DNA from: a virus
Taxonomy: Duplodnaviria > Heunggongvirae > Uroviricota > Caudoviricetes
Strand: one strand, 5' to 3'
DNA length: 64,000 nucleotides
IMG/VR virus record: IMGVR_UViG_3300032893_000003
Span: 78,633-142,632 of that record
The notes beneath the pieces are model-generated. The model saw only the letters and a list, made by a program, of their open reading frames with translations, made no database searches and was not told the DNA's origin. A program made the translations under genes and the position numbers. Numbering within the stretch: position 1 is the stretch's first letter; every line of letters starts with the position of its first letter. Below, one piece after another: positions 9,485 to 50,901 of the stretch.

Positions 9485-9485
9485 A

Positions 9486-10436: not shown

Positions 10437-10861
10437 TGGTGTAGGTAGCGGGAATCGAACCCGCGTCCACAAAAACTTTCAAACGCTCTCTACATACTTA
10501 GCCGTCTTCTGGTCAGGCTGACCCGCTTGCAGTTAAACTCGGCAAGCTCACGATTGGGGGCGGACTACACCGCCAGATCCACCAGCCCGTATTTTGCGCT
10601 ACGACGGGACCGCGCAGGATTTGCCGCGTGTTTTTATCCAGGTCACTTCAGCCAGCTCCTGGTTTTGGTGGTCTTTAGTTTCAAGGCTTCCACCGGCCCC
10701 GCGCGCTACGGATTAGGCAGCGCGAGCGACTGCAGCCTTGCGGCCGAAGTCAACGTGTACGACATTGTCGCCACTTAATAAGTTGCATCATTGATGATCC
10801 GTTCATGCTCCGGGGTATGCAAACGCTTGTCTGTATTCCGTGTCGAAACCATGTTACCCAC
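10437..10861 (-). ncRNA. ssrA: tmRNA (transfer-messenger RNA, SsrA)
   Basis: The reverse complement begins GTGGGTAACATGGTTTCGACACGG (compare the E. coli 5' end GGGGCUGAUUCUGGAUUCGACGGG). It ends ...CTAAGTATGTAGAGAGCGTTTGAAAGTTTTTGTGGACGCGGGTTCGATTCCCGCTACCTACACCA, with a tRNA-like T-arm, acceptor pairing GTGGGTA/TACCTAC and CCA. An internal ORF ends ...GCT GCA GTC GCT CGC GCT GCC TAA (AAVARAA*), consistent with a tag reading frame. Confidence 0.85.
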
Positions 10862-18265: not shown

Positions 18266-18607
18266 TTAAGCGTCGCATACGAGAACCTTGTTATGATGCA
18301 GGTATTTGCCCACTCTCTTGAGTTTATCTGCGCGAAACTTGGTGACGTTTCGTATTGTCACATCACCAGCCTGAATGAGCAGCGCGAGGGCTGCCGATAC
18401 GTCGCCAAGCTCTTTTTCCAGATTCTCTTTATTGGTTGTCGGGTCTTTCTTACGATCAAACGGATGGCAAGATTCGTATCCATGTCGTAAGATCTTTCCA
18501 ATAATTTGTTGGACCTCAGCACACTCCTCCATTAAGAGTGCCAGCCTCTCGGCTTCGGCCGGTGTCAGTTTGTTGAAATGTACGTTATTCATATAGTCTC
18601 CTTTCAA
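18266..18607 (-). CDS. MazG-like nucleotide pyrophosphohydrolase (paralog 1)
   Basis: Contains the EExxE motif (ERLALLMEECAE), the E..D motif (ELGDV) and the shared block GKILRHGY. It is a paralog of the 44906-45238 gene. Confidence 0.65.
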   Translation of the reverse strand: MKGDYMNNVHFNKLTPAEAERLALLMEECAEVQQIIGKILRHGYESCHPFDRKKDPTTNKENLEKELGDVSAALALLIQAGDVTIRNVTKFRADKLKRVGKYLHHNKVLVCDA

Positions 18608-19134
18608 TTTCGACCAACGATGAGCTTTCTAAGCTCCTGCTGGCTATAGTCAAATTGCATATAAATCTCGGTTGTCGTTAGCCACCTATGCCCGAGCGCC
18701 CGTTGGACGAGTCTGATGTCCTTTGTGCGTTTATAAAGCCTAATAGCAAAGGTATGTCTCAGGCAATGAAGTCCTTTGTGCGCCGGACGGTATTCAACCC
18801 AAATCTGCCGAAACCTGTTGTACGTAATTGGAAAAATGAACTTCGATGCAGGCTGCACTTCAGTCATCACCCGACGAAATAGCCACTTAGGTATCGGGAT
18901 ATCCCGATCGCAACCCTCTTTCAAACCACTAACGTAAACAGATAGGTTTTTGTTATCAAGATCCTGGGGCTTAAGGTTTAAGAGTTCCTGTGCCCGAGCG
19001 CCTGTGTGCATGGCTAGCCACAGCAGCGTACAGTTCCTAGGATCTTTGTGTTTAAACTTTTCTAGGATCTGCTCGAGGTGGGCATACTCCTCGTCTGAGA
19101 GGAACTTGTGCTTTGTTAGTTTATAGCGCGCCAC
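18604..19134 (-). CDS. tyrosine recombinase (phage integrase family), catalytic domain only
   Basis: 176 aa containing the full catalytic set: TGARAQEL (Arg), HCLRHTFA (H-x-x-R), LGHRW (His) and TTTEIYMQF (Tyr). There is no N-terminal DNA-binding domain. Confidence 0.7.
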   Translation of the reverse strand: MARYKLTKHKFLSDEEYAHLEQILEKFKHKDPRNCTLLWLAMHTGARAQELLNLKPQDLDNKNLSVYVSGLKEGCDRDIPIPKWLFRRVMTEVQPASKFIFPITYNRFRQIWVEYRPAHKGLHCLRHTFAIRLYKRTKDIRLVQRALGHRWLTTTEIYMQFDYSQQELRKLIVGRN

Positions 19135-23350: not shown

Positions 23351-24331
23351 TCATGTCGATGTGCCATTGTTCTCCCTATACCATTTAATTGTTTCAGCCA
23401 ACCCAGTCCCGACACTTACCCTCGGCGTATATCCGAGGGAGGCCTTAGCACGTTCGATGTCCGCACGAGAACATGGAATGTCTCCCTTACGCCAGTCTGC
23501 GCACTGCATATACTTTGTCGGAAGTGGAAGCCCCTGGTTACAAAATTCCTTAAGAATTTTTAGAGAAAGCTCATCAAGCGTCATATCGCTGCCCATACCG
23601 ATGTTATAGACCTTACCTCCGACAACATCTTTATCAGCGGTAGCCGCCGCAAGAATGGCATCAACAGCATTGTCTACGTAACAAAAATCTCTGGTTATTC
23701 CGGCACTTCCATACAGAATGCAGGGCTTTAGCTCCAAAAGAGATGTTATCCAGTTAGGGATAACAGCCGCATAGCCGCCCGTTGATTGCTGCCTCGGACC
23801 AAAAATATTAAAAAACCTTAAGCCCACCGCCGAAAGTCCAAGCGAGTGATGATACGACTCAGCTACGATCTCGTTTATTCTCTTAGAAGTTGCGTAAGGC
23901 GACAGGGGCTTGCCAATGATGCTCTCGGTTTTAGACGCGGACAGGTCATCGCCGTAAACAGCACTTGAAGAGGCATAGATAAATTTCTTTACGCTAGTGC
24001 CTCGTGCAGCATCGATGACGTTGTTAAAGCCGGTCACATTGTTCTCAAAGGTATCGCCGGGTTCCTCTATAGAGCGAACTACGCTGCATTTGGCAGCCAA
24101 GTGAACAACGACATCTACCTCTTTTGACAGATAGTTGCAAAGCAGCCGATCGCGAATGTCTCCGGCGTGAAGACTGAAATCTTTGCTTTTAAGCGCCCCA
24201 TAAAGGTTCCGACAGTTTCCGTTAGCCGAATGGTTGTCGAGTCCAATTACGCGCTTGCCCGCGGCCAAAAGACGATCCACCAGATGAGAGCCTATGAAGC
24301 CCGCGGCACCAGTGACAAGCCAACGATCCAT
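23351..24331 (-). CDS. NAD-dependent sugar-nucleotide epimerase/dehydratase (extended SDR)
   Basis: 326 aa with GAAGFIGSHLVDRLL (Rossmann fold), YASSSAVYGD and YATSKRINE (YxxxK). Confidence 0.85.
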   Translation of the reverse strand: MDRWLVTGAAGFIGSHLVDRLLAAGKRVIGLDNHSANGNCRNLYGALKSKDFSLHAGDIRDRLLCNYLSKEVDVVVHLAAKCSVVRSIEEPGDTFENNVTGFNNVIDAARGTSVKKFIYASSSAVYGDDLSASKTESIIGKPLSPYATSKRINEIVAESYHHSLGLSAVGLRFFNIFGPRQQSTGGYAAVIPNWITSLLELKPCILYGSAGITRDFCYVDNAVDAILAAATADKDVVGGKVYNIGMGSDMTLDELSLKILKEFCNQGLPLPTKYMQCADWRKGDIPCSRADIERAKASLGYTPRVSVGTGLAETIKWYRENNGTST

Positions 24332-38936: not shown

Positions 38937-39173
38937 ATGATGACTAACTCTATTCAATACAAGAAGCCTTTGTTGAAGCAGGGCGGCATTATATCCACCC
39001 AAGCAGATGGCGTAGTGTGTCTAGATATGTCTGGGACAATGTCCTACATGATCGACACGTCGGACGACAACGGGCAAGTTTGCTACTTCCAAAATCCCGG
39101 GGTCGGCGAAGACACAACTATGACCACGCTGTATGCCCAAGCAAAGGCGGCTTATCCAGCGTTATTTATTTAA
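38937..39173 (+). CDS. hypothetical small protein
   Basis: The RBS GCGGAGGTG sits 6 nt before ATGATG. The tool ORF 38919-39173 is in the same frame. Confidence 0.45.
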   Translation: MMTNSIQYKKPLLKQGGIISTQADGVVCLDMSGTMSYMIDTSDDNGQVCYFQNPGVGEDTTMTTLYAQAKAAYPALFI

Positions 39174-40148
39174 TAACGAATTGGGGTAAATGCTAAGATC
39201 CCTAACGCGGTTATCCGCTTCGCGCCTTATTCCCTTAAAAATTTTATTCAGATAACTGTCAGTCGCCTGTTTAAGAGAATAATAGGTACGGTGAGTTCTG
39301 TCTGAATAAAGCTGCCAGTTATTAAAAACAAGTGAGAGCTTTGCGTAAAGCTCTCTGGCATCAATCCCGCATCCAAGACGTAAGAGCTCAAGCCCGTATT
39401 TATCGTTGTCGTCCATGAGAGGGTTTGCGCGTACCAGCCCATCATTAGCGGGAGAGTAGATCGCAGGAATCCCCCGGGCCCAGGCTTCTTGAATGGTGTT
39501 TGAATAGCACTCAATATGTGAGAGGTGGATAACGACTGAGCAACGCCCCAGAATCTGTAAGAAGTCTTTGTGCTCTTGATTTGTAAAGGCAGGTGCTATG
39601 ATCTCGCAGTTTTTATGCGAAGCCGCAAAATCTCTAGCTACCTCAATAGCGCCATAAGTATTTTTAAAGACATTGTTTGTCCCGCCAAAAATCCCAATTA
39701 CAAATTTATCATCCTTTTTCTTCTGCGGCTGGACGGCAAAAGCGTGGGGAACAAAGATAGCCGGAATTTTCTTAATGTCGTTAAAATATCTCACAGTCGG
39801 CGGGTGCACAAAGCCTATGAGATCCGTTCCGCCAAGCGATTTTGTATCTAAAAATTGTTGCCAATAAATCTCATCGCAGAACATATTCCCATGAAAAGCA
39901 GTACTATGGTAAACGCTTAAGACAGGGAATTTTCGTTCGATTTTTAATTTAAGTAAAAGCTCTTTATAGCCCTTACTCCAGCCCCCAACAACGAGGATGT
40001 CGGGGTCGAGCGCCAAAAGAGTACGAACGTACTGAATAGTAGCCCCAGGATGCTCGATGTGAGGAAGGGGATAATACTCCGTGCACGTTGCCCGCGTGGC
40101 AATGGAAACGCCTTTAAAATTGGGGTTGGAAATGCCGAGAACCTTCAC
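39162..40148 (-). CDS. glycosyltransferase family 4 (GT-B fold)
   Basis: 328 aa with a C-terminal EX7E-type motif (ECYSNTIQEAWARGIPAIYS). The start is GTG with an AGGAG RBS. Confidence 0.7.
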   Translation of the reverse strand: MKVLGISNPNFKGVSIATRATCTEYYPLPHIEHPGATIQYVRTLLALDPDILVVGGWSKGYKELLLKLKIERKFPVLSVYHSTAFHGNMFCDEIYWQQFLDTKSLGGTDLIGFVHPPTVRYFNDIKKIPAIFVPHAFAVQPQKKKDDKFVIGIFGGTNNVFKNTYGAIEVARDFAASHKNCEIIAPAFTNQEHKDFLQILGRCSVVIHLSHIECYSNTIQEAWARGIPAIYSPANDGLVRANPLMDDNDKYGLELLRLGCGIDARELYAKLSLVFNNWQLYSDRTHRTYYSLKQATDSYLNKIFKGIRREADNRVRDLSIYPNSLLNK

Positions 40149-40160: not shown

Positions 40161-41123
40161 CTAAAGCGTCTGATAAATATCCAAAAACTTCTGTGTAGTG
40201 ATTGTAGGATGCCAATACTTTTCCATCCACTTCCTACTTCCGTCAGCGACTAACTTAACTCCGTAAGGGTCATGGATGCAAGAGATTAGGAGTCTTCTTA
40301 GTCCATACTTGTCGGCTATTCGCCACGGCAAAACGTCAGCTCCGGTTAGATCTTTAAGGGTTTTAACCTGGAGTTCATCAAGGCCGGCAATGGTCAATAG
40401 ACCCTGGCTTAGCGCTTCAAGCGAACAGAGATGGTATGAACCCGTAATGATCTCGTCGATCGCTATGTGTCCGCGGCCCCTATGTTCCAGGCACTCGGCA
40501 TGAGGCTTATCGAAGATAACTTCTGCCGTGATAAATTTCTTATTTACGAATTCTTGTAAGACAGGCACTGTCTCGTCATAGCCTTTGTCATCCCAGCCAG
40601 GTAATCTGATCCGCGAAGGGGAAAAGATGACTCGAAGCGGGATAGTCCAGTCTCTTTCTATCGGCGTAAGTTCGGGAAGGGTAATATCGATGACATTTGG
40701 GACGACTGTACATTCGGGCCACTGCCTTGGATGATACTGCCCAATAACGAGATGTTTTGCTTTAGCGTCCTTAAGTCCTTCCTCAATGTCCATCCACGTA
40801 GTGGATCTTTGCGAGTGGACTTGCCATACTCTGGCTTTCGCTTTTCCAATCTCCCAGAGATCGGGGTATCTTTTGAATAAGTCTTGTCTTGAATAGAAGT
40901 TATGGAAGTGCCAGATGTCGGCCCACCGCAAGGTATCTCTGATCTCTTCATACGTATTTTTAGTAGTTAACATATCTGATTTGAAAACTCTATTTTCATT
41001 TCTGTCAGATGCCGCGATGTGCCTGGACTGGACCTTGCCCGCTTGGAATTTATTAAGCGCCAGATTTAAGTTCATCGGCGCGCCGGCAATGGGGTTCTCG
41101 GTGATGTGGATGACTTTAATCAT
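40161..41123 (-). CDS. glycosyltransferase, GT-B fold (GT4-like)
   Basis: 320 aa with IAIDEIITGSYHLCSLEALSQGLLTIAG resembling the GT4 sugar-donor-binding region. Confidence 0.6.
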   Translation of the reverse strand: MIKVIHITENPIAGAPMNLNLALNKFQAGKVQSRHIAASDRNENRVFKSDMLTTKNTYEEIRDTLRWADIWHFHNFYSRQDLFKRYPDLWEIGKAKARVWQVHSQRSTTWMDIEEGLKDAKAKHLVIGQYHPRQWPECTVVPNVIDITLPELTPIERDWTIPLRVIFSPSRIRLPGWDDKGYDETVPVLQEFVNKKFITAEVIFDKPHAECLEHRGRGHIAIDEIITGSYHLCSLEALSQGLLTIAGLDELQVKTLKDLTGADVLPWRIADKYGLRRLLISCIHDPYGVKLVADGSRKWMEKYWHPTITTQKFLDIYQTL

Positions 41124-41142
41124 ACGACGCTTCTCTTAAGGG

Positions 41143-41172
41143 TTGACGAGCTAGGAAATTATTTCCTATTAT
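41143..41172 (+). promoter_or_regulatory. sigma70-like promoter (-35 TTGACG, 18-nt spacer, -10 TATTAT) with palindromic motif copy B (AGGAAAT-T-ATTTCCT) in the spacer
   Basis: It lies 38 nt upstream of the first plus-strand gene (the Fis-type HTH at 41210), in a divergent intergenic region. Confidence 0.6.
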
Positions 41173-41209
41173 AAATTCAGTTGTTTAGGAAGATCAAGGA
41201 TATTTAAAA

Positions 41210-41410
41210 ATGGGCTCGACTTTACCACAAGGTACTTTGACACTATCGTCTCCAAAGTCTTTACAGGACGTGGAAAGAGCCTACATTCTTGAGGTATTAG
41301 TTCATTGTAGATGGCGCATCACAGCCACCTGCCGGATACTAAAAATTTCACGAGCAACTCTGTACCGCAAAATTAAACGGTATGGATTTAAAAAGGAAAC
41401 TAACACATGA
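41210..41410 (+). CDS. Fis-type (HTH_8) small DNA-binding protein, paralog 1
   Basis: The C-terminal ILEVLVHCRWRITATCRILKISRATLYRKIKRYGF matches the Fis/NtrC C-terminal HTH (compare [25 protein letters not shown]). Confidence 0.65.
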   Translation: MGSTLPQGTLTLSSPKSLQDVERAYILEVLVHCRWRITATCRILKISRATLYRKIKRYGFKKETNT

Positions 41411-42018
41411 GACACTTTTCGTCAGACTTTCACATTTGGCATACCAATGTTGTCGTAAAATACGGCCGCGGTCATTTCGGCACGATCGAGAACATGAACG
41501 AGTCCTTAATTAAAAACTGGAATGAGCGCGTGAAGCCAGAGGACACAGCCTATATGCTTGGCGACTTCGCTTTAGCCTGGCAGCCCGTGGGGCGCTACAC
41601 TCGCCGCTTAAACGGGAATAAAGAGCTTGTTGCGGGTAATCATGACTATTGTCATCCGGCCTGTAAACAGGCTCGGAAAAAGAATCCTGATCGCCAGTAC
41701 TGGATCAACCGCTACAAAGATCTTGGCTGGTCTAACGTATTTCTAGTCGGCGATATTACGTTAAAAAACGGTATGAGGTTTAAGATGTGTCACTTGCCCT
41801 ACGTTACGGGCGACTCGCATGACGTAAAGCACTTTGAGCACCGCATTGATGATCAGGGGATACCACTTTTATGTGGTCATGTGCACACTGCGTGGAAACA
41901 TCGGTATACGCCGAAAGGAACACTCATGATCAACGTTGGCGTAGATCAATGGAATTATGCGCCGGTATCAGAAGACGAGCTTTGCGAGTACATTAAAACT
42001 TTAGGAGGGCCCAAATGA
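41407..42018 (+). CDS. calcineurin-like metallophosphoesterase
   Basis: Contains SDFHIWH, GDF, VAGNHDY and CGHVHTAW motifs. Confidence 0.7.
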   Translation: MRHFSSDFHIWHTNVVVKYGRGHFGTIENMNESLIKNWNERVKPEDTAYMLGDFALAWQPVGRYTRRLNGNKELVAGNHDYCHPACKQARKKNPDRQYWINRYKDLGWSNVFLVGDITLKNGMRFKMCHLPYVTGDSHDVKHFEHRIDDQGIPLLCGHVHTAWKHRYTPKGTLMINVGVDQWNYAPVSEDELCEYIKTLGGPK

Positions 42019-42362
42019 GCACTGAAAGAGAAGTGTTTAAAAAGATAGATGACTTGGTTAAAAATCATCAGTTCGAAAAGGACAAATACGCTATAGCCGC
42101 CTTCTCTTTAGCGAAGGCAGCGCTGAAGGAAGTAATGCTCGAGCATCCTGAGATCGAGGTGCTTAAAAGTACGGAGAATGGCTTCTACCTCAGGGTTTAT
42201 GTTGATGGTGAATTTAATGGCCCTGCTGGTCTGCACATGACTGGCAAACATGAAAAGCTCGCAAAGTGTTTGGAAGTTTTAGAAGAAAAGCTAAGGATCC
42301 TCGATTATTTACCGAGAAAGATTTTTATCACTCAAGCTGACGCAAGAAGGGAGACCGCATGA
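42015..42362 (+). CDS. hypothetical protein
   Basis: 115 aa with ATGA coupling. Confidence 0.5.
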   Translation: MSTEREVFKKIDDLVKNHQFEKDKYAIAAFSLAKAALKEVMLEHPEIEVLKSTENGFYLRVYVDGEFNGPAGLHMTGKHEKLAKCLEVLEEKLRILDYLPRKIFITQADARRETA

Positions 42363-42446
42363 TTTTAGATTTTATAAGTAACCACTCAGACGAAGTGTGC
42401 GGAATGTTTATCATTATTGTCATCTTAATCTTTATGAGGAACTAAA

Positions 42447-42884
42447 ATGAAAATAGAACAGGTTTACCCAGGAGTCTTTAGAAGTGCCCAACCTGAAGTG
42501 CAAGCCGACTTCGAAGCTGTGTTAAAACTCGGCCAGAGGGTTGTAGTCATAGATCTAGAAAATGAAAGCGGAGAAAGCCCGTGGGAGCAGGCCCAGTGGG
42601 CACAGTTTGCAGCCCGGATAAACTTCCAAAGTTTTCCGATGTCGAGCTTTTGGCCACCATCAGAAGATAAGGTAAAGCAGATATTAGCCACTATTGCTTC
42701 GGCTGTCGCGCAAGGCTTTGTGGTTCTTGTCCACTGTAAGCATGGCCAAGACCGCACTGGACTTATTATAGGAGAGCTTAGGCTCTCGAAAGGCTGGGAC
42801 AAAGACGATGCTTGGGGCGAGATGCTTGATAAGGGATTTCACCCAATTCTTTTGGGGCTTACGATTTATTTCTGGTTACACTAA
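42447..42884 (+). CDS. protein tyrosine/dual-specificity phosphatase (CX5R)
   Basis: Contains VVLVHCKHGQDRTGLIIG, matching the HCxxGxxRT P-loop. Confidence 0.7.
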   Translation: MKIEQVYPGVFRSAQPEVQADFEAVLKLGQRVVVIDLENESGESPWEQAQWAQFAARINFQSFPMSSFWPPSEDKVKQILATIASAVAQGFVVLVHCKHGQDRTGLIIGELRLSKGWDKDDAWGEMLDKGFHPILLGLTIYFWLH

Positions 42885-42899
42885 ATAAAGGAGATTTAT

Positions 42900-43076
42900 A
42901 TGGCTAAAGAAGAAACAACAAAAAGTACGGGGAAGGGTGATACTAAAATCATCACTTGCTCGTGCCATCACGACTATCAGGACGAAAAGTACGGCAAAGG
43001 TCGAAGGCTCTATAACCCTTGTAAAGACGGTAAGGCTCATCGCTGTACCGTATGCGGTACTGAGCGGCTGAATTAA
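42900..43076 (+). CDS. small zinc-ribbon protein (58 aa; below the ORF-track cutoff)
   Basis: RBS AAAGGAG. The translation is MAKEETTKSTGKGDTKIITCSCHHDYQDEKYGKGRRLYNPCKDGKAHRCTVCGTERLN. Confidence 0.45.
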   Translation: MAKEETTKSTGKGDTKIITCSCHHDYQDEKYGKGRRLYNPCKDGKAHRCTVCGTERLN

Positions 43077-43134
43077 TTTTTATTTAGTTTGCTGTATTCG
43101 CTTAGCTGGCGAGTATAGTGAAGAGGAGATTTAA

Positions 43135-43374
43135 ATGGAATCACAATTTGAAGTACCTGTAATGAGGCTGATTCTGGTCATAGGAGCCGTTATCACAGGC
43201 CTCTGGTATCTCTGGCCGGACCCAACTCGCGATATGTGCCACCAAATGGCTGAAGATATGACGCGGTCTATGTATCCGGTGTGTCACGACACTGCAAAAA
43301 TTGTGGATGAACTGACCACGACCTGCGTTGATTATGTCAACGCCAGTCCATTAGGTCATTCGAGGGCGTTCTAA
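43135..43374 (+). CDS. small membrane protein
   Basis: 79 aa with the hydrophobic segment LILVIGAVITGLWYLW. Confidence 0.45.
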   Translation: MESQFEVPVMRLILVIGAVITGLWYLWPDPTRDMCHQMAEDMTRSMYPVCHDTAKIVDELTTTCVDYVNASPLGHSRAF

Positions 43375-43613
43375 TGAGTGATGAAGAATTTTGGAATGCT
43401 ACAGAGCTCGGTCACCTTGAAGAACGGTGCAATGAGCTTAGGACGCTTATGATGAGCCAGCGGCCGTTACGATTTACCATCTGGGGCGATAACGGCGCTG
43501 TTGAAGGAAATTTCTTACCCCACGAAGTTGTTCGGGACTGCATCAGGGTTGAGTTACAGAAGGTCACCGCAAAGATTGTTCGCCTTCGAAAGGAGATAGA
43601 ATGCTCGAAATAA
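43374..43613 (+). CDS. hypothetical protein
   Basis: 79-aa ORF with ATGA coupling. Confidence 0.45.
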   Translation: MSDEEFWNATELGHLEERCNELRTLMMSQRPLRFTIWGDNGAVEGNFLPHEVVRDCIRVELQKVTAKIVRLRKEIECSK

Positions 43614-43716
43614 ATTTTAAACAATTTTCAGTATGGCAACGGATCGCGATTGCTTGGCACATTTTGCTTGGTAGAACGTGCCAGTTCAATGAATCGACAA
43701 CTGCGAACGTTGAATA

Positions 43717-44010
43717 TTGCAAGAGGGACGCATGATAACGGTTCAAGAGATGGAGCCAGAGCGCTGTCCGCGGTGCTCAGGTAAAACGATAGCCGTAGCC
43801 CGTAATATGAAAGGCACAAGGAGCTGTGCTGACTGTCATCTTACTTGGAATCCGTATGTTCGCGTGGAGGACCGTAGTTGGCAGAGAGCCCGCGAGATAA
43901 TATCCCAAATACTTGTGGCCCATGGCAGCAGTATCCCTATTGGGTACATAAACGAACTTAAAACTATATTTGGATTGCCTGGAGGAAATTATGAACATGC
44001 TACCGATTGA
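43717..44010 (+). CDS. zinc-ribbon protein
   Basis: 97 aa with CPRCSGK...CADCH. Confidence 0.45.
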   Translation: MQEGRMITVQEMEPERCPRCSGKTIAVARNMKGTRSCADCHLTWNPYVRVEDRSWQRAREIISQILVAHGSSIPIGYINELKTIFGLPGGNYEHATD

Positions 44011-44242
44011 GTTTGTCCAGGGGGACCAAGGTCCTCACTATACGGACACAATTGAGCTCGCTCTTGAGCGATGTGTGGTTACAGAAAAGGGCACACAAGG
44101 CGGACTTCCCATCGTGGACTTTGTGATGAAAGGTCCTGCTGGTCAGAAGTATATGTTTTGCGTGACAGGCCGAATGATGACAATGCTTGCGGCTGCTATC
44201 AAAGGCGTTAACGTACGTAACCACGGAGTGGCTGAGCCATGA
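43970..44242 (+). CDS. hypothetical protein
   Basis: 90-aa ORF. Confidence 0.45.
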   Translation: MDCLEEIMNMLPIEFVQGDQGPHYTDTIELALERCVVTEKGTQGGLPIVDFVMKGPAGQKYMFCVTGRMMTMLAAAIKGVNVRNHGVAEP

Positions 44243-44481
44243 AGGAGTCTAATATGAGAAAAAACAAAAAAGTTTCAAAAGGCGCTTACGAAAGAGGGTA
44301 CTTGAAAGCCGTTAAGGACTGCGCAATTCTTGCTCGCAGGTGGGCTAAGAACTATCCGATTGATGTGTTTCCTCCACCGAAGGCTGGCGACGAGTCTTCA
44401 TCAGTTAGGGCGGCAGCGCAGATGGCACGACATACGTGCGAAACTTTAGCCATGAAAATGTGGGAGGAGCTAAAACCATGA
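44239..44481 (+). CDS. hypothetical protein
   Basis: 80-aa ORF. Confidence 0.45.
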   Translation: MKESNMRKNKKVSKGAYERGYLKAVKDCAILARRWAKNYPIDVFPPPKAGDESSSVRAAAQMARHTCETLAMKMWEELKP

Positions 44482-44711
44482 GCTACAAAACAGAACTTGA
44501 GCCAGTTTACAGAACCTACACCATTAAAGCTCCGTCGAAGTTACTCCCAAGTGCAGAGCAGGTCCTTGGGAGAATCATCTTTAAAGACAAAGAGTTTTCT
44601 CACTGTGAATTTAAAGGCAAGAATCCTTATTCTCGGGAAGACTGGAAGATGCTTGCTTTTATCGAGAAGTCGATCGGTAAGATCGAAAAGGAGTTAGCAA
44701 ATGGAAAATGA
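44478..44711 (+). CDS. hypothetical protein
   Basis: I used the ATG start (MSYKTELEP...) with ATGA coupling. The tool start at 44436 lies upstream in the same frame. Confidence 0.4.
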   Translation: MSYKTELEPVYRTYTIKAPSKLLPSAEQVLGRIIFKDKEFSHCEFKGKNPYSREDWKMLAFIEKSIGKIEKELANGK

Positions 44712-44919
44712 TCCGGTAAACTCGCCAAAACACTATACGTCACATCCATCAGGGATTGAATGCATTCAAGTTACGAGGCACATGGGATTTAATCTCGGGA
44801 ATGCCTTCAAATACATCTGGCGTGCTGATCTTAAAAACGGAGTCGAAGATCTTAAGAAAGCTATTTGGTACATCAATGACGAGATTGAAAAAAGAGAAGG
44901 TAAGAATGGAGCCGTTTAA
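44701..44919 (+). CDS. hypothetical protein
   Basis: 72-aa ORF. Confidence 0.4.
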   Translation: MENDPVNSPKHYTSHPSGIECIQVTRHMGFNLGNAFKYIWRADLKNGVEDLKKAIWYINDEIEKREGKNGAV

Positions 44920-45238
44920 TGGTTTAACTCCTGCGCAAGTGGAACGTCTTGCGGTCCTTAGCGAGGAGCTAGGTGAGGCGCAACAGCGTGTTGGCAAGAT
45001 CTTAAGACATGGCTATACCCGTTCGAAAAAGGTCGTAAACAACCGCGAACAGCTGGAGATTGAACTTGGAGACGTAATGGCAGCCATTTCAGTTCTTGTG
45101 CGATATCAGGATCTGAGACTGGGCCGCATACGGGATCGTAAACATCACAAGCTTCAAACTGTTTGGGATTATTTGCATCACAACAAGAAAGAAGATGTCT
45201 ATGTATCAGAGGATGAAGGACGGCCTGATAACCTATAG
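44906..45238 (+). CDS. MazG-like nucleotide pyrophosphohydrolase (paralog 2)
   Basis: Starts MEPFNGLTPAQVERLAVLSEELGEAQQRVGKILRHGY and contains ELGDV. The tool ORF begins at 44756, but the ATG at 44906 has RBS GAAGGTAAG. It is a paralog of the 18266-18607 gene. Confidence 0.6.
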   Translation: MEPFNGLTPAQVERLAVLSEELGEAQQRVGKILRHGYTRSKKVVNNREQLEIELGDVMAAISVLVRYQDLRLGRIRDRKHHKLQTVWDYLHHNKKEDVYVSEDEGRPDNL

Positions 45239-45434
45239 CAATGGACGGCTATGGGGCGCTGCTGGCGGCCAGCTCGAATACGTCTCGCAAGAGATCGTGC
45301 TTGATCCTGTGCTTGGGCAATTTGTGATGCTCATCAAGTTTACTGATCATGATCACAGTTTTAACAATCCAGAAGATGCGCCCGACCTCGTTGAAGGGCG
45401 CTACTATGTTCTGGAAGTTCCACTTGCGGAGTAG
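45195..45434 (+). CDS. hypothetical protein
   Basis: 79-aa ORF. Confidence 0.4.
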   Translation: MSMYQRMKDGLITYSNGRLWGAAGGQLEYVSQEIVLDPVLGQFVMLIKFTDHDHSFNNPEDAPDLVEGRYYVLEVPLAE

Positions 45435-45438
45435 ATTT

Positions 45439-45717
45439 ATGAAAAAAGCTAAAAGAGAAGTGTGGCTAGAGGTGAGGCAAGATGGCACGTACGTCGAAGT
45501 TCACGACAAGCCAGAGAAGACTTATAAAGACAATGATTTGATTAAACTTGTGGACGCTGAGTCCTTTGATAAGTTGGCAGCCGAAAACTGGGTTCTACAC
45601 GACACGAATCTTCGGACATATGACGGCATGGCAAGGAGAGCAGACAAGTACGACAAAGTCATGAGGCTCTTAGTGAAACTTGCAGAAGACATCAACAAAA
45701 TTTCGGAGGAAAAATGA
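45439..45717 (+). CDS. hypothetical protein
   Basis: Starts at the ATG of MKKAKREVWLEV... The tool start at 45349 lies upstream in the same frame. Confidence 0.45.
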   Translation: MKKAKREVWLEVRQDGTYVEVHDKPEKTYKDNDLIKLVDAESFDKLAAENWVLHDTNLRTYDGMARRADKYDKVMRLLVKLAEDINKISEEK

Positions 45718-46166
45718 AGCAAAAGGCTATAATTTGCGATCTCGATGGGACGCTTTTTGACATCAGACACCGCGAACATTTGGCGCGAGAGAAGAAGTGG
45801 GATGAATTTCACGCTGCCATGATCAACGATACTCCGCATAACTGGTGTGCGCAGCTCATTAGAACTTTCTGTTTTTCCGATGTGGCTGGTATGTTTGATG
45901 TGCTCTATGTTACCGGTCGGCCAGAAAAATACCGCGAAACTTCTGCGGAAGTTCTCCGGCTTCATCGCCTAGACCTGCACGAAGCTCTTTTCATGCGCAA
46001 GGATAACGATTTTCGCAAAGACGCGGTTGTGAAGACAGAAATCTACAATGAGCACATCAAAGATAAATACGATATCTTATTTTGCCTTGAAGACCGCAAG
46101 CAGGCTGTCGATGCTTGGCGGGCGTTGGGGCTTACTTGCTTGCAATGTGCGGAAGGGGATTTTTAA
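45714..46166 (+). CDS. HAD-superfamily phosphatase
   Basis: The N-terminal AIICDLDGTLFD matches HAD motif I (DxDGT). Confidence 0.65.
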   Translation: MKQKAIICDLDGTLFDIRHREHLAREKKWDEFHAAMINDTPHNWCAQLIRTFCFSDVAGMFDVLYVTGRPEKYRETSAEVLRLHRLDLHEALFMRKDNDFRKDAVVKTEIYNEHIKDKYDILFCLEDRKQAVDAWRALGLTCLQCAEGDF

Positions 46167-47141
46167 GTGATTGCGCTAGCGGTCAGCTCGGCGTGGCCGC
46201 GGTACCACGCTTCATCACCGTTTCTAAATCTCTTCAATGCCATACACCCTAAGTTTTTGCCATGCCACGCCTTGCCGCACGAGGTGGCTAGCCCCGAGTA
46301 TCAGGCGAAGGTTAATTCTTGCAGTGCCTTGGTAGTTGACGATGTTCTTTCACAACATATGGGTTTTTACAAGAACGGCCCAAAGCTCATGATTGGCGGT
46401 GACCCGCATGCACATAGACCGGACCAGGTTGAAAGGCTTACCAAAGAATATAACTGTGTCGATTACGTTCTCACAGGGGCTGTATTTAGTAGGAAGCTTA
46501 AAGACAAGTATCTCTATCCGGCTGATGAGCTTTGGAATAAGCACGTTTATTTTCCGCACATGGTTCCGGACACATTGCCAAGTGGTCTAACAAACTGGAC
46601 TGCGCGCGCTGACAGAGTACTTCTCTCAGGGGACCTATCTGAAGCTGTATACCCTTACAGATATGCGTGTGCTCAGCTCGCGAAGACAGCGCATTCCCCG
46701 CTGGAAGTGCTGGGGCGAAACGACTTCCATCACACGAAGTACTTTGAAAAGCTTGCGCAATATAAGGCAGCGACGACGTGCACATCTATTTTTAGATATA
46801 TGGTGGCTAAGTACCTTGAGATCCCGTGGGTTGGTACAGTTCTAATGGCACCCAGACCCATCACCGATGAATGTGTGCTTATGGGCTTTGAGGATTGTGT
46901 CAATGTCATTTGGTGTGAAATGCCGGAGGAAGTGCCGCTTCATTTTAAAAAGATGCTTCCACTTCTCGAAGAGGTTGGGGAAGCAGGATCTAAGCTCATG
47001 CGCGAGCATCATACGACAACAAGAAGGCTTGACTACATTGTCCATCTCGTTGACCGTATAAATAAAGGCGGTTTTGTGCCAGAAGACGCAAAACAGCTTT
47101 TCTTAGACTTGCGCAAAGGAGCTGTGCATGCACTTCCCTGA
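46167..47141 (+). CDS. hypothetical protein (324 aa); a GT-B-like C-terminal half is possible
   Basis: The start is GTG. The C-terminal YMVAKYLEIPWVGTVLMAP weakly resembles the nucleotide-sugar-binding segment of GT-B glycosyltransferases. Weak evidence. Confidence 0.45.
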   Translation: MIALAVSSAWPRYHASSPFLNLFNAIHPKFLPCHALPHEVASPEYQAKVNSCSALVVDDVLSQHMGFYKNGPKLMIGGDPHAHRPDQVERLTKEYNCVDYVLTGAVFSRKLKDKYLYPADELWNKHVYFPHMVPDTLPSGLTNWTARADRVLLSGDLSEAVYPYRYACAQLAKTAHSPLEVLGRNDFHHTKYFEKLAQYKAATTCTSIFRYMVAKYLEIPWVGTVLMAPRPITDECVLMGFEDCVNVIWCEMPEEVPLHFKKMLPLLEEVGEAGSKLMREHHTTTRRLDYIVHLVDRINKGGFVPEDAKQLFLDLRKGAVHALP

Positions 47142-47763
47142 TGATTTTTTCCCAGGCAATCATATCCATGAAACGGCTGTTATCTCAACAGGTGCTCAGA
47201 TAGGGACTGGAAACATAATTGGTCCCTACTGCTACATTGGGTCTGAAGTTACGATCGGCAACAACAACCACTTTTTTGGTTATGTCTCAATCGGCATGAC
47301 GGCTGAACATAGAGATTATTTTAACAGTCCTGGTGAAGTTGTGATTGGAAATTCTAATGTGGTGCGGGAATTTGTGACAATTAATTCATCCACAAAGGGC
47401 GTTACAAAGATGGGGAATGGCTGCACCATGCTTCGGGGCAGCCATTTGAGCCATGATTCAGTTCTTGAAGATCGCGTGACAGTGTCATGTAACGTTTTAA
47501 TTGGCGGGGAGTCTTACATCATGGAAGGAGCTAATCTGGGATTAGGAGCGGTTCTTCATCAGTATCAGGTTATTGGCGCTTACGCGATGCTTGGGATGGG
47601 TGCTGTCGTTCCTAAAAAGACCGATATTCTGCCTGGTCAGATCTATGCTGGGAATCCCGCTAAATTTTTAAAACGAAACGAAATTGGGCTTGAACGAAAC
47701 AAGATATCAGCCCAGCTTCTGGCAGAACTAACTGATAAATATTGGAAACTCAGGAGAAAATAA
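47128..47763 (+). CDS. left-handed beta-helix hexapeptide-repeat acyltransferase, LpxA-like
   Basis: Contains IHETAVISTGAQIGTGNIIGPYCYIGSEVTIGNNNHFFGYVSIG as hexapeptide repeats, in a pattern like the LpxA N-terminus. Confidence 0.65.
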   Translation: MHFPDDFFPGNHIHETAVISTGAQIGTGNIIGPYCYIGSEVTIGNNNHFFGYVSIGMTAEHRDYFNSPGEVVIGNSNVVREFVTINSSTKGVTKMGNGCTMLRGSHLSHDSVLEDRVTVSCNVLIGGESYIMEGANLGLGAVLHQYQVIGAYAMLGMGAVVPKKTDILPGQIYAGNPAKFLKRNEIGLERNKISAQLLAELTDKYWKLRRK

Positions 47764-47764
47764 A

Positions 47765-48505
47765 ATGGAAGAATATTTTGTGGTCGCAGATATTGCGGGG
47801 CAGTTTGACGCCCTTCAAAGACTTGTAAAGCGTGTGCCAGAGACAACGCCCATCATTCTTGTTGGGGACCTTGTTGACCGCGGGCATGAATCTTACGAGG
47901 TTGTGGATTGGGCGATGAAGACCCCAAGGGTTACGAGTCTGCTGGGGAATCACGAACACATGATGTGGGACTATTACACTAATTACGGATCTAAAACCTT
48001 TTATGATGATATTGAGGGGCAACCGTGCTGGCTTTACTGTGGACAAAACGGCAATAACGGAGGGGGAGCTACGAGAGCCTCATATTCTAGGAATGGCTTT
48101 AAGCGCCCTCCCCAGGAACACCTTGATTGGATTATAAGCCGCCCACTTCATTTTCAAACGGAAGATAAGAAGATGGTTGTTACTCACGCGCCGATTCTAG
48201 CTGGCGAGACGTTGGAGTCAGCCCTTCAGAAGACGGCTGAGTTTGTAAAGAACGGCGGGTACCGCCACGCGGATGGATCCTTAATATGGAATAGGACCCC
48301 TCCTACACACAAACCATATTTACAGATTTTTGGTCACAACTCGTATTGGGGTTTGCAACCCTTCTACAGCAAGGATGACGAGGCTGTCGGGGATATCTAT
48401 GCTTTGTGCATAGATCAGTCAGGAAAGGGTATTTTAACAGGTTTTCACTGGCCAACCTACGAAATTCTAGAAGAGCACTACCTCGCAAGCGATAACCCAA
48501 AATAA
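47765..48505 (+). CDS. lambda-PPase-like Ser/Thr protein phosphatase (PPP-family metallophosphoesterase)
   Basis: Contains GDLVDRGHESYEVVDW, LLGNHEHMMWDYY and NGGG, closely paralleling lambda PPase (GDLVDRGAENVECLEL, RGNHEQMMIDG, LLNGGG). Confidence 0.75.
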   Translation: MEEYFVVADIAGQFDALQRLVKRVPETTPIILVGDLVDRGHESYEVVDWAMKTPRVTSLLGNHEHMMWDYYTNYGSKTFYDDIEGQPCWLYCGQNGNNGGGATRASYSRNGFKRPPQEHLDWIISRPLHFQTEDKKMVVTHAPILAGETLESALQKTAEFVKNGGYRHADGSLIWNRTPPTHKPYLQIFGHNSYWGLQPFYSKDDEAVGDIYALCIDQSGKGILTGFHWPTYEILEEHYLASDNPK

Positions 48506-48525
48506 TCTGGTCTTGTTTAGAAGAT

Positions 48526-48556
48526 AGAGACCTTTCATAATTTATGAAGGGTCTCT
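48526..48556. promoter_or_regulatory. 15-bp-arm inverted repeat (AGAGACCTTTCATAA-T-TTATGAAGGGTCTCT, 1 mismatch) ending 5 nt before the metalloprotease start codon
   Basis: The hairpin would sequester the region immediately 5' of ATG 48561. No T-run follows it, so it is not a classical terminator. Confidence 0.4.
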
Positions 48557-48560
48557 GAAA

Positions 48561-49115
48561 ATGAAGATTTTATTGTTCATTTTATTCTTCGCCTTGCCCG
48601 CCGAGGCTCAATGGAGCGTTGATCAAAACCTAAGATCTTACGCTGAAGACTTTATTGGAGACAGCCACGGTATGCTTCGTGATGGCGATCTTGATCACGT
48701 ACACTTTAAATTTGAAAAGCTAGGTTACGATGTGAAACTGGGTTCTGGCATTATCGGGATGTGCTATCGCACAATCTTTTCCGACAACTTTACGATCGGC
48801 ATTGACCCTGACTACTGGAACAACGCCTACACTTGGGAGGATGACAGATGGCAGCTTATGTATCACGAACTCGGGCACTGCATGTGCAATCTCGAACACC
48901 CCATCGATTCAGAGCCATTAAAGTTCATCGAATTTTTAGGAAGGTACGGCATAAAACATAACCGCTACAAAATGTTCTTCGACGGCTGTCCCATGACTCT
49001 CATGCACCCGATTAACGTCGAGCATTACTGCCTCAACAACCACAGGGAATATTACGTTAAGGAAATCTTCAAGCATTGCAGGGTCTTACGAACTTCTGAC
49101 TTCTCCACTGATTAG
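48561..49115 (+). CDS. secreted zinc metalloprotease-like protein (HExxH)
   Basis: The signal peptide MKILLFILFFALPAEAQ is followed by MYHELGHCM (HExxH) with downstream His and Cys residues. Confidence 0.6.
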   Translation: MKILLFILFFALPAEAQWSVDQNLRSYAEDFIGDSHGMLRDGDLDHVHFKFEKLGYDVKLGSGIIGMCYRTIFSDNFTIGIDPDYWNNAYTWEDDRWQLMYHELGHCMCNLEHPIDSEPLKFIEFLGRYGIKHNRYKMFFDGCPMTLMHPINVEHYCLNNHREYYVKEIFKHCRVLRTSDFSTD

Positions 49116-49209
49116 TGGGTGCCTTTTTTATTTAGCTATTATATGATGGCTCTAATTAGCTCTCTTAAAAACGCGGACCGAGAGCGCCGCATACAAAAAG
49201 GAGGCCACA

Positions 49210-50007
49210 ATGGCTGGATACGAACAACCTGGCTTTATTGCCACTATCATCGGACCTGATGGTAGACCAATCAGGGAACACAACGAAAACGGACGACGAG
49301 TCGCAAGACTCCCTTTTGGCAGCGAATATAAAGTTCGTCTGCAAAATAAAAGTCTGCTTCGTGCGCTTGTCGGAGTCGAGATCGACGGCACTAATGTCAC
49401 ATCTGCTGGCAAGATTATCTTGCATGCGGGGGAGTCGGTCGACCTTGAGCGGTTCTTAGAGAACCTAAACGGCGGATCTAAATTCAAATTTGTGGAAGCT
49501 TCAAACGGGGCGGTTCAGGATCCGACAGCTATGGAGAATGGTCGGATTCGCGTGACATTCGAAGGGGAGCTGCTAGTTACTACAGCTTGGTGCCCGCCGA
49601 TACAGCCAAGCTGCTCCGGTGTCTTGCGGGGTATGGGCTTTTACGGTGCCGTTAATAACACGGCCTATATCAGCAGCACTTCGGCTAAAGGGATGACCAG
49701 CAGTACGCAGGCTTGTGTGAATAGCTCTGCGCCTATCATGGACGCCTTCCCATCTGACGCGGGTGCCACAGTCGACGGCGGCCACAGCTCGCAGCAGTTT
49801 AACTCATCTAACGAGTACTTCCCTGTCAATGCCCCGATCTATATCGATCTCTGGCTCAAAGGGCTGCAGCCCGTACTGTATAATGTCTGCCGACAAGGAA
49901 GCGGCATTCAGGTGAACGGCCACTACTTCGAGCACGGGTCTGTGACGATTGAAGGCGGTAAAGTTCGCATTGAACTTCCGGCTGATAAGACGAGCGTCAG
50001 GCTCTAA
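49210..50007 (+). CDS. hypothetical protein (265 aa)
   Basis: RBS AAAGGAGG. Intact ORF; the last gene of the plus block. Confidence 0.55.
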   Translation: MAGYEQPGFIATIIGPDGRPIREHNENGRRVARLPFGSEYKVRLQNKSLLRALVGVEIDGTNVTSAGKIILHAGESVDLERFLENLNGGSKFKFVEASNGAVQDPTAMENGRIRVTFEGELLVTTAWCPPIQPSCSGVLRGMGFYGAVNNTAYISSTSAKGMTSSTQACVNSSAPIMDAFPSDAGATVDGGHSSQQFNSSNEYFPVNAPIYIDLWLKGLQPVLYNVCRQGSGIQVNGHYFEHGSVTIEGGKVRIELPADKTSVRL

Positions 50008-50012
50008 TAGTT

Positions 50013-50044
50013 AAAAAAAGGGAAGACCCCGCGATTAAGCGGGG
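50013..50044. terminator. terminator-like hairpin between convergent genes
   Basis: An A7 run precedes the stem CCCCGC/GCGGGG (loop GATTAA, which contains the stop of the minus-strand gene). On the minus strand this is followed by CTTCCCTTTTTTT. Confidence 0.5.
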
Positions 50045-50901
50045 GTTTCCTCAAGCAACAGCTTTTTATCATGATGGATACCAGTAACCTGACAGAAGAT
50101 CGCGTTTAAGCGATCGAGACGGCCAAGCCTCTTGGTGTCTTGAATCTTCGTCAGTTTGTGCGTTAAAACGTTTGTGAAGTTATTGTAGTAGCTCCAGAAC
50201 GTCTGCGGTTGGCAGCCTAAGTTTGGATCGAGGACATCGCTATGATCTTTGATCGTTTTCTTGGCCACAACTTGGAACTTAAGCGCGCTATCAAGGATCG
50301 CTTCTTTAGCTTCCTCGTTAACGTCCCTGTCAGCCCACGTGCGCCAGACATTGCCAGCTCCACGGAAAAGCTCAAGGACAGAGTCGGGATCTGGAAATTT
50401 AAGCTCTGAATTTTTAAGGTGTGGGAAACTCAGTTCAAGCTCGCCTCCTGGGATTGTCATGCCATTTAAGCAGCGTAAAACCATCCCGCCGATTTTTACA
50501 ATACGGGAGCTGGTGCCGTCATAGGTATTGATGAATGAAATGCGCAAGTTAACGATATCGCCAACCTTACGGTTTTCGACCTTTATCTTTTCTTTTGGAA
50601 AAGTGCTCGTCATAACAAAGCGCAGACCGTCACGCTCAATAGCTTTTGTTTGTGTCTGATCACCAAAGTGATGAAGAAAGTCATTAGCTGCGTCATACAT
50701 CTGGCTGTGAGTGAAAAGATCATAACGACTTTTGACCACCGATAAGGGTTGGTCATTGTCGGTGCGCACGACACTCTTAGCGCCTTTGATGAGCTTTCCA
50801 TGCTGAGTGTAGACATCCTGAAGTTCAACTGGAAAATCGAATTTTACTGCTTTTGCTGCTTCCATTTTTATATCTCCTTTATGGTTTAAAATTTTGTCCA
50901 A
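50035..50901 (-). CDS. DUF932-family protein (phage/plasmid-related)
   Basis: 288 aa with SFINTYDGTSSRIV matching the DUF932 motif (nSHDGSs-like). Confidence 0.6.
   Translation of the reverse strand: MDKILNHKGDIKMEAAKAVKFDFPVELQDVYTQHGKLIKGAKSVVRTDNDQPLSVVKSRYDLFTHSQMYDAANDFLHHFGDQTQTKAIERDGLRFVMTSTFPKEKIKVENRKVGDIVNLRISFINTYDGTSSRIVKIGGMVLRCLNGMTIPGGELELSFPHLKNSELKFPDPDSVLELFRGAGNVWRTWADRDVNEEAKEAILDSALKFQVVAKKTIKDHSDVLDPNLGCQPQTFWSYYNNFTNVLTHKLTKIQDTKRLGRLDRLNAIFCQVTGIHHDKKLLLEETPA

Follow-up and report, generated by a model that had tools for sequence, protein, structure and literature searches.

Within a 64,000-nucleotide stretch of an uncultured tailed phage (positions 78,633 to 142,632 of IMG/VR record IMGVR_UViG_3300032893_000003, here called the window), we analysed a plus-strand block of genes at 41210-49115 that is rich in phosphatases and phosphoesterases. 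We favour, with moderate confidence, the reading that this block is a conserved glycan-building frame with two fast-turning cargo slots, which hold independent accessory genes. Judged by the homologies of its members, the frame is a predicted sugar-tailoring and glycosyl-transfer cassette. A preliminary description of the block had named eight gene types in it, and all of them are present and look intact: a calcineurin-like metallophosphoesterase, a CX5R tyrosine/dual-specificity phosphatase, a HAD phosphatase, a lambda-PPase-like Ser/Thr phosphatase, a MazG-like pyrophosphohydrolase of nucleoside triphosphates (NTPs), an LpxA-like acyltransferase, a 324-residue protein and a HExxH protease with a signal peptide. 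The same description put its weight on the phosphatases; the part that is conserved comprises a glycosyltransferase (GT) of the GT-B type, the LpxA-like protein, the secreted peptidase and two divergently transcribed genes, in other words a glycan module.

The division into frame and cargo comes from a comparison with eight related loci (on contigs that include lengths of 56-176 kb), which were gathered through the GT-B protein and against which every gene of the window was scored. The recurring frame consists of m328, m320, the HTH protein, the metallophosphoesterase MPE203, the GT-B protein, LbH211, MP184 and w265 (Table 1). MPE203 is found in six of the eight loci, an HTH-related open reading frame (ORF) in most of them, and LbH211 always lies beside or near the GT-B gene. 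In contrast to the frame, PTP145 (72% identity), PPP246 (74% identity) and a 58-residue ORF recur in locus L001 only, and the 115-residue ORF, ten small ORFs, the DUF3310 gene, the MazG-like gene and HAD150 were seen in the window phage only. Four relatives (L002, L004, L009 and L011) keep the metallophosphoesterase as the only phosphatase of the block, and L005, which is without the metallophosphoesterase, has no phosphatase at all. Because the phosphatases do not recur as a set in the relatives, their richness here appears to stem from gene turnover in the two cargo slots, not from a system that is conserved.

We define slot A as the space between the metallophosphoesterase and the GT-B gene and slot B as that between the acyltransferase and the peptidase. 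In L002 and L005 nothing occupies slot A, which contains one small gene in L004 and holds a small ORF together with a Prs-like/NAMPT-like pair in L009 (3853-6059). Slot B is occupied by PPP246 in the window and in L001, by a methyltransferase, a metallo-beta-lactamase-like protein and two small ORFs in L002, and by one small ORF elsewhere. The slot content differs even between phages whose frame proteins are 56-78% identical. Outside the slots, L002 and L005 additionally carry an epimerase/dehydratase gene, which adjoins the divergent GT genes, and extra GT-B paralogues.

Table 1. Features of the block and its flanks, in window coordinates.
Feature	Position	Strand	Assignment	Evidence
m328	39162..40148	-	GT4/GT1-like glycosyltransferase, divergent from block	weak Glycos_transf_1 match, E 0.0047
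m320	40161..41123	-	most conserved protein of the module	61-78% identity in six relatives
Promoter candidate	41143-41172	+	sigma70-like	TTGACG-18-TATTAT, 10/12; consensus match only
Mirror promoter candidate	41197-41168	-	sigma70-like, for minus-strand genes	consensus match only
HTH protein	41210..41410	+	Fis-type HTH_8 DNA-binding protein, 66 residues, first gene of the unit	PF02954, E 1.4e-14
MPE203	41407..42018	+	aq_1665-like binuclear metallophosphoesterase, frame	phrog_547, E 4e-37
115-residue ORF	42015..42362	+	cargo	no family match; absent from all relatives
PTP145	42447..42884	+	CX5R dual-specificity/tyrosine-type phosphatase, slot A cargo	P-loop HCKHGQDRTG
Eight small ORFs	42900..44711	+	58-97 residues, cargo	Shine-Dalgarno (SD)-like sequences
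Membrane protein ORF	43135-43374	+	predicted membrane protein (hydrophobic segment), cargo	
Zn-ribbon ORF	43717-44010	+	cargo	
DUF3310 protein	44701..44919	+	cargo	PF11753, E 7.6e-15
MazG-like protein	44906..45238	+	all-alpha NTP pyrophosphohydrolase, 110 residues, cargo	phrog_4856, E 6.5e-14
Two small ORFs	45201..45717	+	77 and 92 residues, cargo	gene calls of a near-identical contig
HAD150	45714..46166	+	stand-alone PNKP-type 3'-phosphatase domain, cargo	PF25109, 118 bits, positions 2-143 of 143
GT324	46167..47141	+	predicted GT-B glycosyltransferase, frame	homologue domains and AlphaFold model
LbH211	47128..47763	+	short LpxA-family left-handed beta-helix acyltransferase, frame	LpxA models and structures
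PPP246	47765..48505	+	lambda-PP-like metallophosphatase, slot B cargo	PF00149, E 3.7e-15, 57 bits (cut-off 21.5)
MP184	48561..49115	+	predicted exported Zn-metallopeptidase, 184 residues, frame	HExxH; signal-like MKILLFILFFALPAEA, kept in five orthologues
Terminator-like hairpin	49104-49119	+	overlaps the MP184 stop codon	TCCACTGATTAGTGGG then TGCCTTTTTT; consensus match only
w265	49210..50007	+	conserved 265-residue protein	follows the peptidase in every relative

The 324-residue protein had been left as an unknown in the preliminary description; the gene stands, and its product, GT324, can now be assigned to the GT-B glycosyltransferases. We found 17 homologues, among which the PF13524 domain is often present, and an AlphaFold model built from the homologues (pLDDT 91.6) contains the two Rossmann-like domains of a GT-B fold. 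The T4 glucosyltransferase AGT is a near-top structural match of this model. Exact-sequence look-ups of GT324 and of PPP246 returned no match, nor did an IMG/VR scan with the single GT324 protein, and alignment scans of IMG/VR and metagenomes added only a contig that was already known and two short fragments. By the layout of the two genes, GT324 is predicted to be translationally coupled to LbH211.

LbH211 is, as far as family models and structural alignments indicate, a true member of the LpxA family. Its hexapeptide-repeat beta-helix is recognised by PF00132 (E 1e-12) and it aligns to 17 LpxA structures with E-values from 1e-25 to 1e-21; the scores are below the equivalog cut-offs of both NF003657 (152.9 against 226) and TIGR01852 (135.3 against 231). 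The residue comparison is to an E. coli LpxA reference sequence that was checked only by the residue identities at the positions concerned. LbH211 retains the equivalents of His122, His125, Asp126, His160, Gln161, Asn198 and Arg204 (E. coli numbering), and the motifs GSHLSHD, LHQY and RNEIG, which align with the E. coli catalytic residues, are kept in 64-65 of 65 phage members of the family. At other positions the phage protein departs from E. coli LpxA: Gly173 is replaced by Met and His144 by Glu, and Gln73 and Lys76 are not kept. Gly173 is reportedly the hydrocarbon ruler of the enzyme, and a Met at this place would predict a shorter acyl chain. Together these changes give indirect hints as to whether LbH211 would use the LpxA substrates R-3-hydroxyacyl-ACP and UDP-GlcNAc. 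LbH211 aligns to E. coli residues 37-220 only, so that one coil (~47-64) and the last ~35 residues are gone. In the relative L011, the LbH protein has a Tyr at the equivalent of the catalytic His125 and a Leu at that of His122.

This short LpxA-like family, of which no phage member has been characterised, is found widely among uncultured phages. It comprises more than 2000 metagenomic members of 190-237 residues and occurs on 222 IMG/VR contigs, while a search of the cultured phage collection gave only nine records at ≤37% identity, several of which are bacterial lpxA. Among the matches listed from bacterial and archaeal genomes, all are ≤37% identical and most belong to Bacteroidota, and a close cellular source was not seen. 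Of 65 distinct family sequences, 64 keep the His125 equivalent and 63 have a Met where E. coli LpxA has Gly173. The gene context was surveyed at 80 IMG/VR loci: in 63 of them a recognisable GT gene stands no more than two genes from LbH, and in 43 virion genes lie within 5 kb. The common order, present in at least 37 loci, is portal, protease-capsid, c183, c78, GT (phrog_1962), LbH, head-tail attachment, tail terminator, tail tube and tape measure, c183 and c78 being our labels for two genes.

Loci L112-L144 (for instance L139, 9336-10588) represent a widespread uncultured siphovirus-like lineage with c183, c78, the phrog_1962 GT and the short LpxA-like gene, and here the cassette sits between the protease-capsid fusion gene and the head-tail attachment gene. 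An assignment of c183 as a GT42 sialyltransferase was dropped, as its matches were non-significant only. A second lineage carries GT-B, LbH and GT2 genes immediately upstream of the terminase gene. At five loci (L152-L156, for instance L152, 9917-12522), the LbH gene is followed by genes for a GFO/IDH/MocA oxidoreductase and a DegT/DnrJ/EryC1 aminotransferase, a pair that we take to serve the synthesis of a UDP-3-amino sugar for N-acylation of the LpxA or WbpD type. One further locus has an NAD-dependent epimerase/dehydratase gene in front of the LbH gene.

We propose that LbH211 would transfer an acyl group, probably a short one or an acetyl, to position 3 of a UDP-GlcNAc-type sugar. The glycosyltransferases would then link this sugar and others to an acceptor in the cytoplasm, for which a virion protein is the likeliest candidate. 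A virion acceptor is favoured because the family repeatedly lies between capsid and tail genes and because the cassette comes without export machinery. Genes for a membrane glycosyltransferase, a flippase or a transporter are absent from the block, whose only hydrophobic segments are found in a 79-residue cargo protein and in the signal segment of MP184. More glycan genes are present in the window at a distance from the block, namely a GT2 gene (Glyco_transf_21 / Glyco_tranf_2_3) at 12287-13423 (-) and an NAD-dependent epimerase/dehydratase gene at 23351-24331 (-).

The remaining frame genes are less uniform in what they suggest. The orthologues of m328, which is 42-64% identical in L001, L002, L004 and L005, match Glyco_trans_1_4 (E 1e-5) and Glycos_transf_1. 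The adjoining m320 gave no match in Pfam, PHROG or NCBIfam searches, and profile-profile comparison of m320, m328 and GT324 (hhalign) detected nothing significant between m320 and the other two; since this similarity is non-significant, we do not call m320 a glycosyltransferase. For MP184, the signal-peptide-bearing HExxH protease of the preliminary description, both features are borne out by the orthologues: HELGHC-x6-H is invariant in six of them, several Cys residues are conserved and all six have a hydrophobic N-terminus. MP184 itself has no Pfam match, and its orthologues in L002 and L004 match PF18894 (PhageMetallopep) with 28.8 and 26.2 bits against a cut-off of 23.7. The protein w265 is 39-68% identical in L001, L002, L004, L005 and L009 and consists of conserved N- and C-terminal domains that are joined by a hypervariable linker rich in Ser, Thr and Gly. 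It matched no family, and no structure by sequence. w265 could be a glycosylation substrate.

Several points weigh against the favoured reading. In this phage the module lies among replication genes (AEP primase and helicases) and not among capsid genes, and m320, its most conserved protein, has no recognisable fold. The adjacency to capsid genes elsewhere is circumstantial, as morons that alter the host surface also occupy structural modules. Furthermore, one phosphoesterase does recur with the module, since the metallophosphoesterase belongs to the frame, and gaps of 55-103 nucleotides between genes leave room for internal promoters. The chemistry, the transcription and the virion glycan are all predictions. 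In a larger form, the proposal would be that a short-acyl C3-modified UDP-amino sugar and the glycosyltransferases yield an acylated capsid or tail glycan made wholly in the cytoplasm, that this is a widespread phage pathway, and that in this lineage new counter-defence effectors also settle in the operon, PTP145 and the His-less lambda-PP protein included. We put this larger form forward tentatively, as doubtful in its entirety.

A different substrate for the GT/LpxA-like core would be the phage DNA, which would be hypermodified against restriction, or the host envelope, where MPE203 would act as LpxH and the GT-B protein as LpxB in superinfection exclusion. The near-top match of GT324 to T4 AGT and the position of the module among replication genes are in line with a DNA substrate, yet the gene listings of the window show neither a hydroxymethylase nor a thymidylate-synthase-like gene. 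An envelope substrate is suggested by the exported peptidase of the frame, by metagenomic annotations of lpxA/lpxD-like genes as auxiliary genes of viruses (PMC9529941) and by L011 (662-5301), where the order is MPE, LbH, a 107-residue ORF, GT-B, a second GT-B, a 125-residue ORF and a Lipid_desat-family (PF10520) protein. A role of MPE203 as LpxH in a 'mini Raetz pathway' is nevertheless unsupported: no NCBIfam match to LpxH or LpxB was obtained, and MPE203 does not combine the LpxH family model with a lipid-binding cap. The MPE203 family occurs in 721 cultured phage records, mycobacteriophages included, against nine for LbH, hence the two are no general pair. In LbH211, moreover, the LpxA C-terminal domain is cut short and a Met stands at the acyl-chain ruler position, the block has neither flippase nor membrane transferase, and in many phages the cassette is found between capsid and tail genes. 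We therefore regard a DNA or envelope substrate as very unlikely, and a virion acceptor for the predicted cassette is retained as the favoured reading.

The preliminary description had read the concentration of phosphatases as a set of take-over or counter-defence functions. In its full form this account holds that the phosphatases and phosphoesterases are a dedicated arsenal against host signalling or defence proteins or nucleotide second messengers, and that the rest of the block is incidental. The concentration itself is real, with five intact phosphohydrolases in one co-directional unit. Six phosphohydrolase genes are recognisable in the window, and five of them fall within 7.9 kb, or 12% of the window length (P ~1.5e-4, binomial), a post-hoc figure that was chosen after the fact and is not to be over-read. 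The first enzyme of the unit, MPE203, has all five metallophosphoesterase motifs and scores 27.3 bits against Metallophos_2 (cut-off 27). A counter-defence function has precedent in Gp48 of phage A10ZJ24, a functionally tested mycobacteriophage metallophosphoesterase that acts early as a phosphodiesterase, damages host DNA and silences anti-phage genes (PMC12287305); the MPE203 family also occurs in cultured mycobacteriophages, and the likeness of MPE203 to Gp48 is one of annotation and not of measured homology.

PTP145 is the unusual member among the phosphatases. It matches PTP-SAK (37.1 bits), Y_phosphatase2 (34.6) and PTP-NADK (32.8), each above the cut-off of 27, and its best Pfam matches include the polymorphic-toxin family Tc-R-P. 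We take PTP-SAK and Tc-R-P to be conflict-system families. The nearest solved structure is TpbA (4r0s, E 2.4e-7), and the acidic residues of the segment PPSEDK lie in the region aligned to the general-acid loop of TpbA, where the alignment is gapped. Neither the 50,697 GenBank phage records nor PHROG gave a match to PTP145, so that it is not found in cultured phages; IMG/VR gave none either, a weak negative given the poor search patterns.

Further points in favour of an arsenal come from outside the block. The Prs-like/NAMPT-like pair in slot A of L009 presumably resembles the NARP1 anti-defence pathway of NAD reconstitution. The window has the same pair away from the block, which consists of a NAMPT-like gene at 2649-4133 (-; phrog_448, E 7e-188) and an adjoining Prs-like gene of 263 residues at 4434-5225 (-). 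The same phage genome encodes an Acb5-family protein (PF26761; L013, 11028-11264) just outside the window, and a weak AcrVA2-like gene (PF26125) lies at 14999-16048 (-) in the window. By these family matches, the phage appears to carry recognisable anti-defence genes outside the block.

The set of phosphatases, however, is not conserved among the relatives, as described above. Relatives of PTP145, PPP246, HAD150 and the MazG-like protein were found near the LbH gene in none of the 80 surveyed phage loci; the metallophosphoesterase was near it in one, which is the same contig as the already counted relative L004. The families are mutually unrelated and all but PTP145 are common in phages. No anti-defence-named Pfam family is among the matches of the 17 block proteins scanned (four small ORFs lay outside the scan), and nothing in the analysis points to the hydrolysis of cyclic oligonucleotides or (p)ppGpp that had been suggested. 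We consider a dedicated arsenal unlikely. An accessory role of the cargo and MPE203 in take-over or counter-defence remains a reasonable part of the original idea, a counter-defence role for the cargo being plausible from the families involved, whereas a coherent phosphatase module does not. Under the frame-and-cargo reading, each cargo phosphatase would probably hit its own target in take-over or counter-defence, with no cooperating phosphatase system.

HAD150, PPP246 and the MazG-like protein raise another possibility, namely that these genes serve nucleic-acid and nucleotide housekeeping: HAD150 and PPP246 would heal RNA or DNA ends, PPP246 in the manner of the metallophosphatase domain of bacterial Pnkp, the MazG-like protein would clean the nucleotide pool and MPE203 would be a phosphodiesterase or nuclease. 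HAD150 fits this idea: its whole length is covered by the alignments to the phosphatase domains of Pnkp1 (4xrp, E 5e-19) and T4 PNKP (1ltq, E 1e-12), and it has the motif CDLDGT, which conforms to DxDGT. It has 150 residues, aligns to T4 PNKP residues 158-301 only, has no 5'-kinase domain, and belongs to a family seen in 3354 cultured phage records. The MazG-like protein probably starts at 44906, as in the gene calls of a near-identical contig; it matches YpjD (2gta, E 6e-5), to which its SEELGE and EIELGD motifs align, and scores below the PF03819 cut-off (18.3 against 22). A second MazG-like gene of 108 residues is located at ~18266-18592 (-), and a Phage_integrase-family ORF of 176 residues, short for an integrase, adjoins it at 18604-19134 (-). 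Both MazG and metallophosphoesterases are standard phage annotations of nucleotide metabolism.

For PPP246, the observations point in two directions. On the one hand, it matches phrog_8238 ('RNA ligase', E 5.5e-8) at positions 175-346 of 737 and, weakly, the bacterial Pnkp model TIGR04075 (E 0.0012), and the IMG/VR locus L195 has a 323-residue HAD150-like protein two genes from a PPP relative. On the other hand, the Pfam listings that cover most of the window show neither a polynucleotide kinase nor an RNA ligase, the genes are not conserved together, and PPP246 has no metal-binding His in motif I. The preliminary description was right about its lambda-PPase-like family (PF00149, and phrog_246 with E 5e-29), but the motif I expected of that family, GDxHG, is ADIAG here and in the L001 orthologue, so that the metal-ligand His is absent. 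The other motifs (GDLVDRG, GNHE, THAP and GHN) are intact. When the 150 top representatives at 50% identity are compared, ~140 have (G/A/S)D(I/V)(A/G)G as motif I; because the His-less motif is common to so many, it marks a distinct subfamily and is not a sign of decay. This subfamily (proteins P0259-P0408, loci L174-L191) has 397 representatives at E<=1e-10. Its IMG/VR examples are on viral contigs of 160-230 kb, beside helicase, sigma factor, dUTPase or chaperonin genes, and the PPP246 relatives lie in non-structural regions of large phages. A constant neighbour gene was not found among these relatives; their neighbours are inconsistent, and RNA ligase is not recurrent. Taken together, a housekeeping role for the set is distinctly improbable, and we continue to read these genes as independent cargo of the glycan frame.

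The block is probably one transcription unit, as its gene layout and signals suggest. A single unit is plausible because the 20 co-directional genes mostly overlap or abut and most are preceded by SD-like sequences, and because a promoter-like site stands in front of them and a terminator-like hairpin at the end. The single sigma70-like promoter that had been described is a good consensus site, the best on the plus strand in the scanned region 40900-50300; four intergenic gaps of 55-103 nucleotides inside the unit have room for internal promoters, so that the word 'one' is the part of this claim that is less certain. A sigma54-type promoter considered for the gap at 43614-43716 was dropped, as its GG-to-GC spacing is wrong. 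The divergent intergenic region at 41124-41209 measures 86 bp and has overlapping sigma70-like sites on both strands, and the HTH_8 protein encoded just downstream may regulate both directions. Rfam matches in the window are to tRNAs and tmRNA only, with none inside the block.

The block stands out in its surroundings. The plus-strand island at 41210-50007 has ~21 co-directional genes, the rest of the window is read on the minus strand, and the GC skew flips sign across the island. The parent phage has a genome of ~175 kb (ENA ERZ27256510 k141_2144977); public assemblies include near-identical contigs of 175,152-175,168 bp, and IMG/VR lists one relative as a 175,117-bp viral genome. When the block DNA was compared with GenBank phages, the sole match was ~100 bases in the DUF3310 gene, and a 1171-residue primase had no tblastn match among GenBank phages. 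On these comparisons the phage therefore seems to have no close cultured relative. The 'moraphage' lineage of PMC12619734, which reaches 307 kb, is a different one.

Elsewhere the window contains endolysin-like genes, the AEP primase, helicases and several RNA genes. The last include a cluster of six tRNA genes (Ser x2, Tyr, Pro, Leu x2) at 9016-9568 (-), a phage tmRNA at 10437-10861 (-; Rfam 106 bits, tag GDNVVHVDFGRKAAVARAA) and, at 858-931 (-), a tRNA with a CUA anticodon, an amber suppressor that ARAGORN labels 'Pyl'. TAG is the ordinary stop codon of the MazG-like gene, the 77-residue ORF and MP184. Because these block genes stop at TAG, recoding of TAG is not evident in the block.

As a phosphatase system, the block is ordinary, in that it would consist of independent accessory genes, mostly of common phage families. 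If an acylated virion glycan is indeed made, virion glycosylation would extend beyond the mycobacteriophage examples and gain a new chemistry. The variable slots offer a practical place to seek new counter-defence genes, because their content changes between close relatives and one of them, in L009, contains an NAD-salvage pair. PTP145 and the His-less lambda-PP subfamily are candidate effectors without known substrate.

The cargo enzymes and MPE203 can each be set beside a known counterpart. PTP145 shares the HCxxGxxRTG P-loop and a similar catalytic-domain length with TpbA of Pseudomonas aeruginosa and the Y_phosphatase2/PTP-SAK dual-specificity phosphatases. TpbA is periplasmic, whereas PTP145 is phage-encoded and has no signal peptide. 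HAD150 corresponds over its full length, DxDGT motif included, to the 3'-phosphatase domain of T4 PNKP and Pnkp1; unlike these it comes without a 5'-kinase, and a ligase was not seen nearby. PPP246 agrees with the lambda PP/NinI-like phosphatases in overall length and in the GDxVDRG, GNHE, NGGG, HAP, IWNR and GH motifs, but its motif I, (G/A)D(I/V)AG in place of the GDxHG of lambda PP, is missing one metal ligand. MPE203 shares five motifs and its size with the phrog_547/aq_1665 (1xm7) family and has an early position in the unit; the mycobacteriophage homologues of this family are annotated as 'metallophosphoesterase', and MPE203 is only ~27-33% identical to them.

For the sugar-modifying core, the closest likeness is to LpxA, with which LbH211 shares the left-handed beta-helix, the catalytic residues and the start of the C-terminal helical domain. 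LpxA has 262 residues and LbH211 211, without the complete C-terminal domain and coil set. The gene neighbourhoods differ as well, as lpxA genes adjoin fabZ, lpxB or lpxD while the phage short form adjoins glycosyltransferases. The same short architecture is seen in the unpublished structure PDB 8e62 (189 residues), which matches LbH211 with E 8e-32 and 40% identity in the alignment; 8e62 has no close match in cultured phages.

At the level of the whole cassette, precedents are the virion glycosylation of mycobacteriophages (Freeman et al. 2023) and viral glycosyltransferases that act on DNA (Pyle et al. 2024), both as cited in PMC12619734. The phage glycosylation cassettes treated in the portion of that paper considered here are, like the present frame, clusters of soluble glycosyltransferases and sugar-tailoring enzymes with no membrane or transport component. 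An LpxA-family acyltransferase is not among the components mentioned in that portion, and in this respect the predicted cassette differs from them. It also differs in its place, since the block lies in a replication region, while many relatives of the LbH family stand beside capsid and tail genes.

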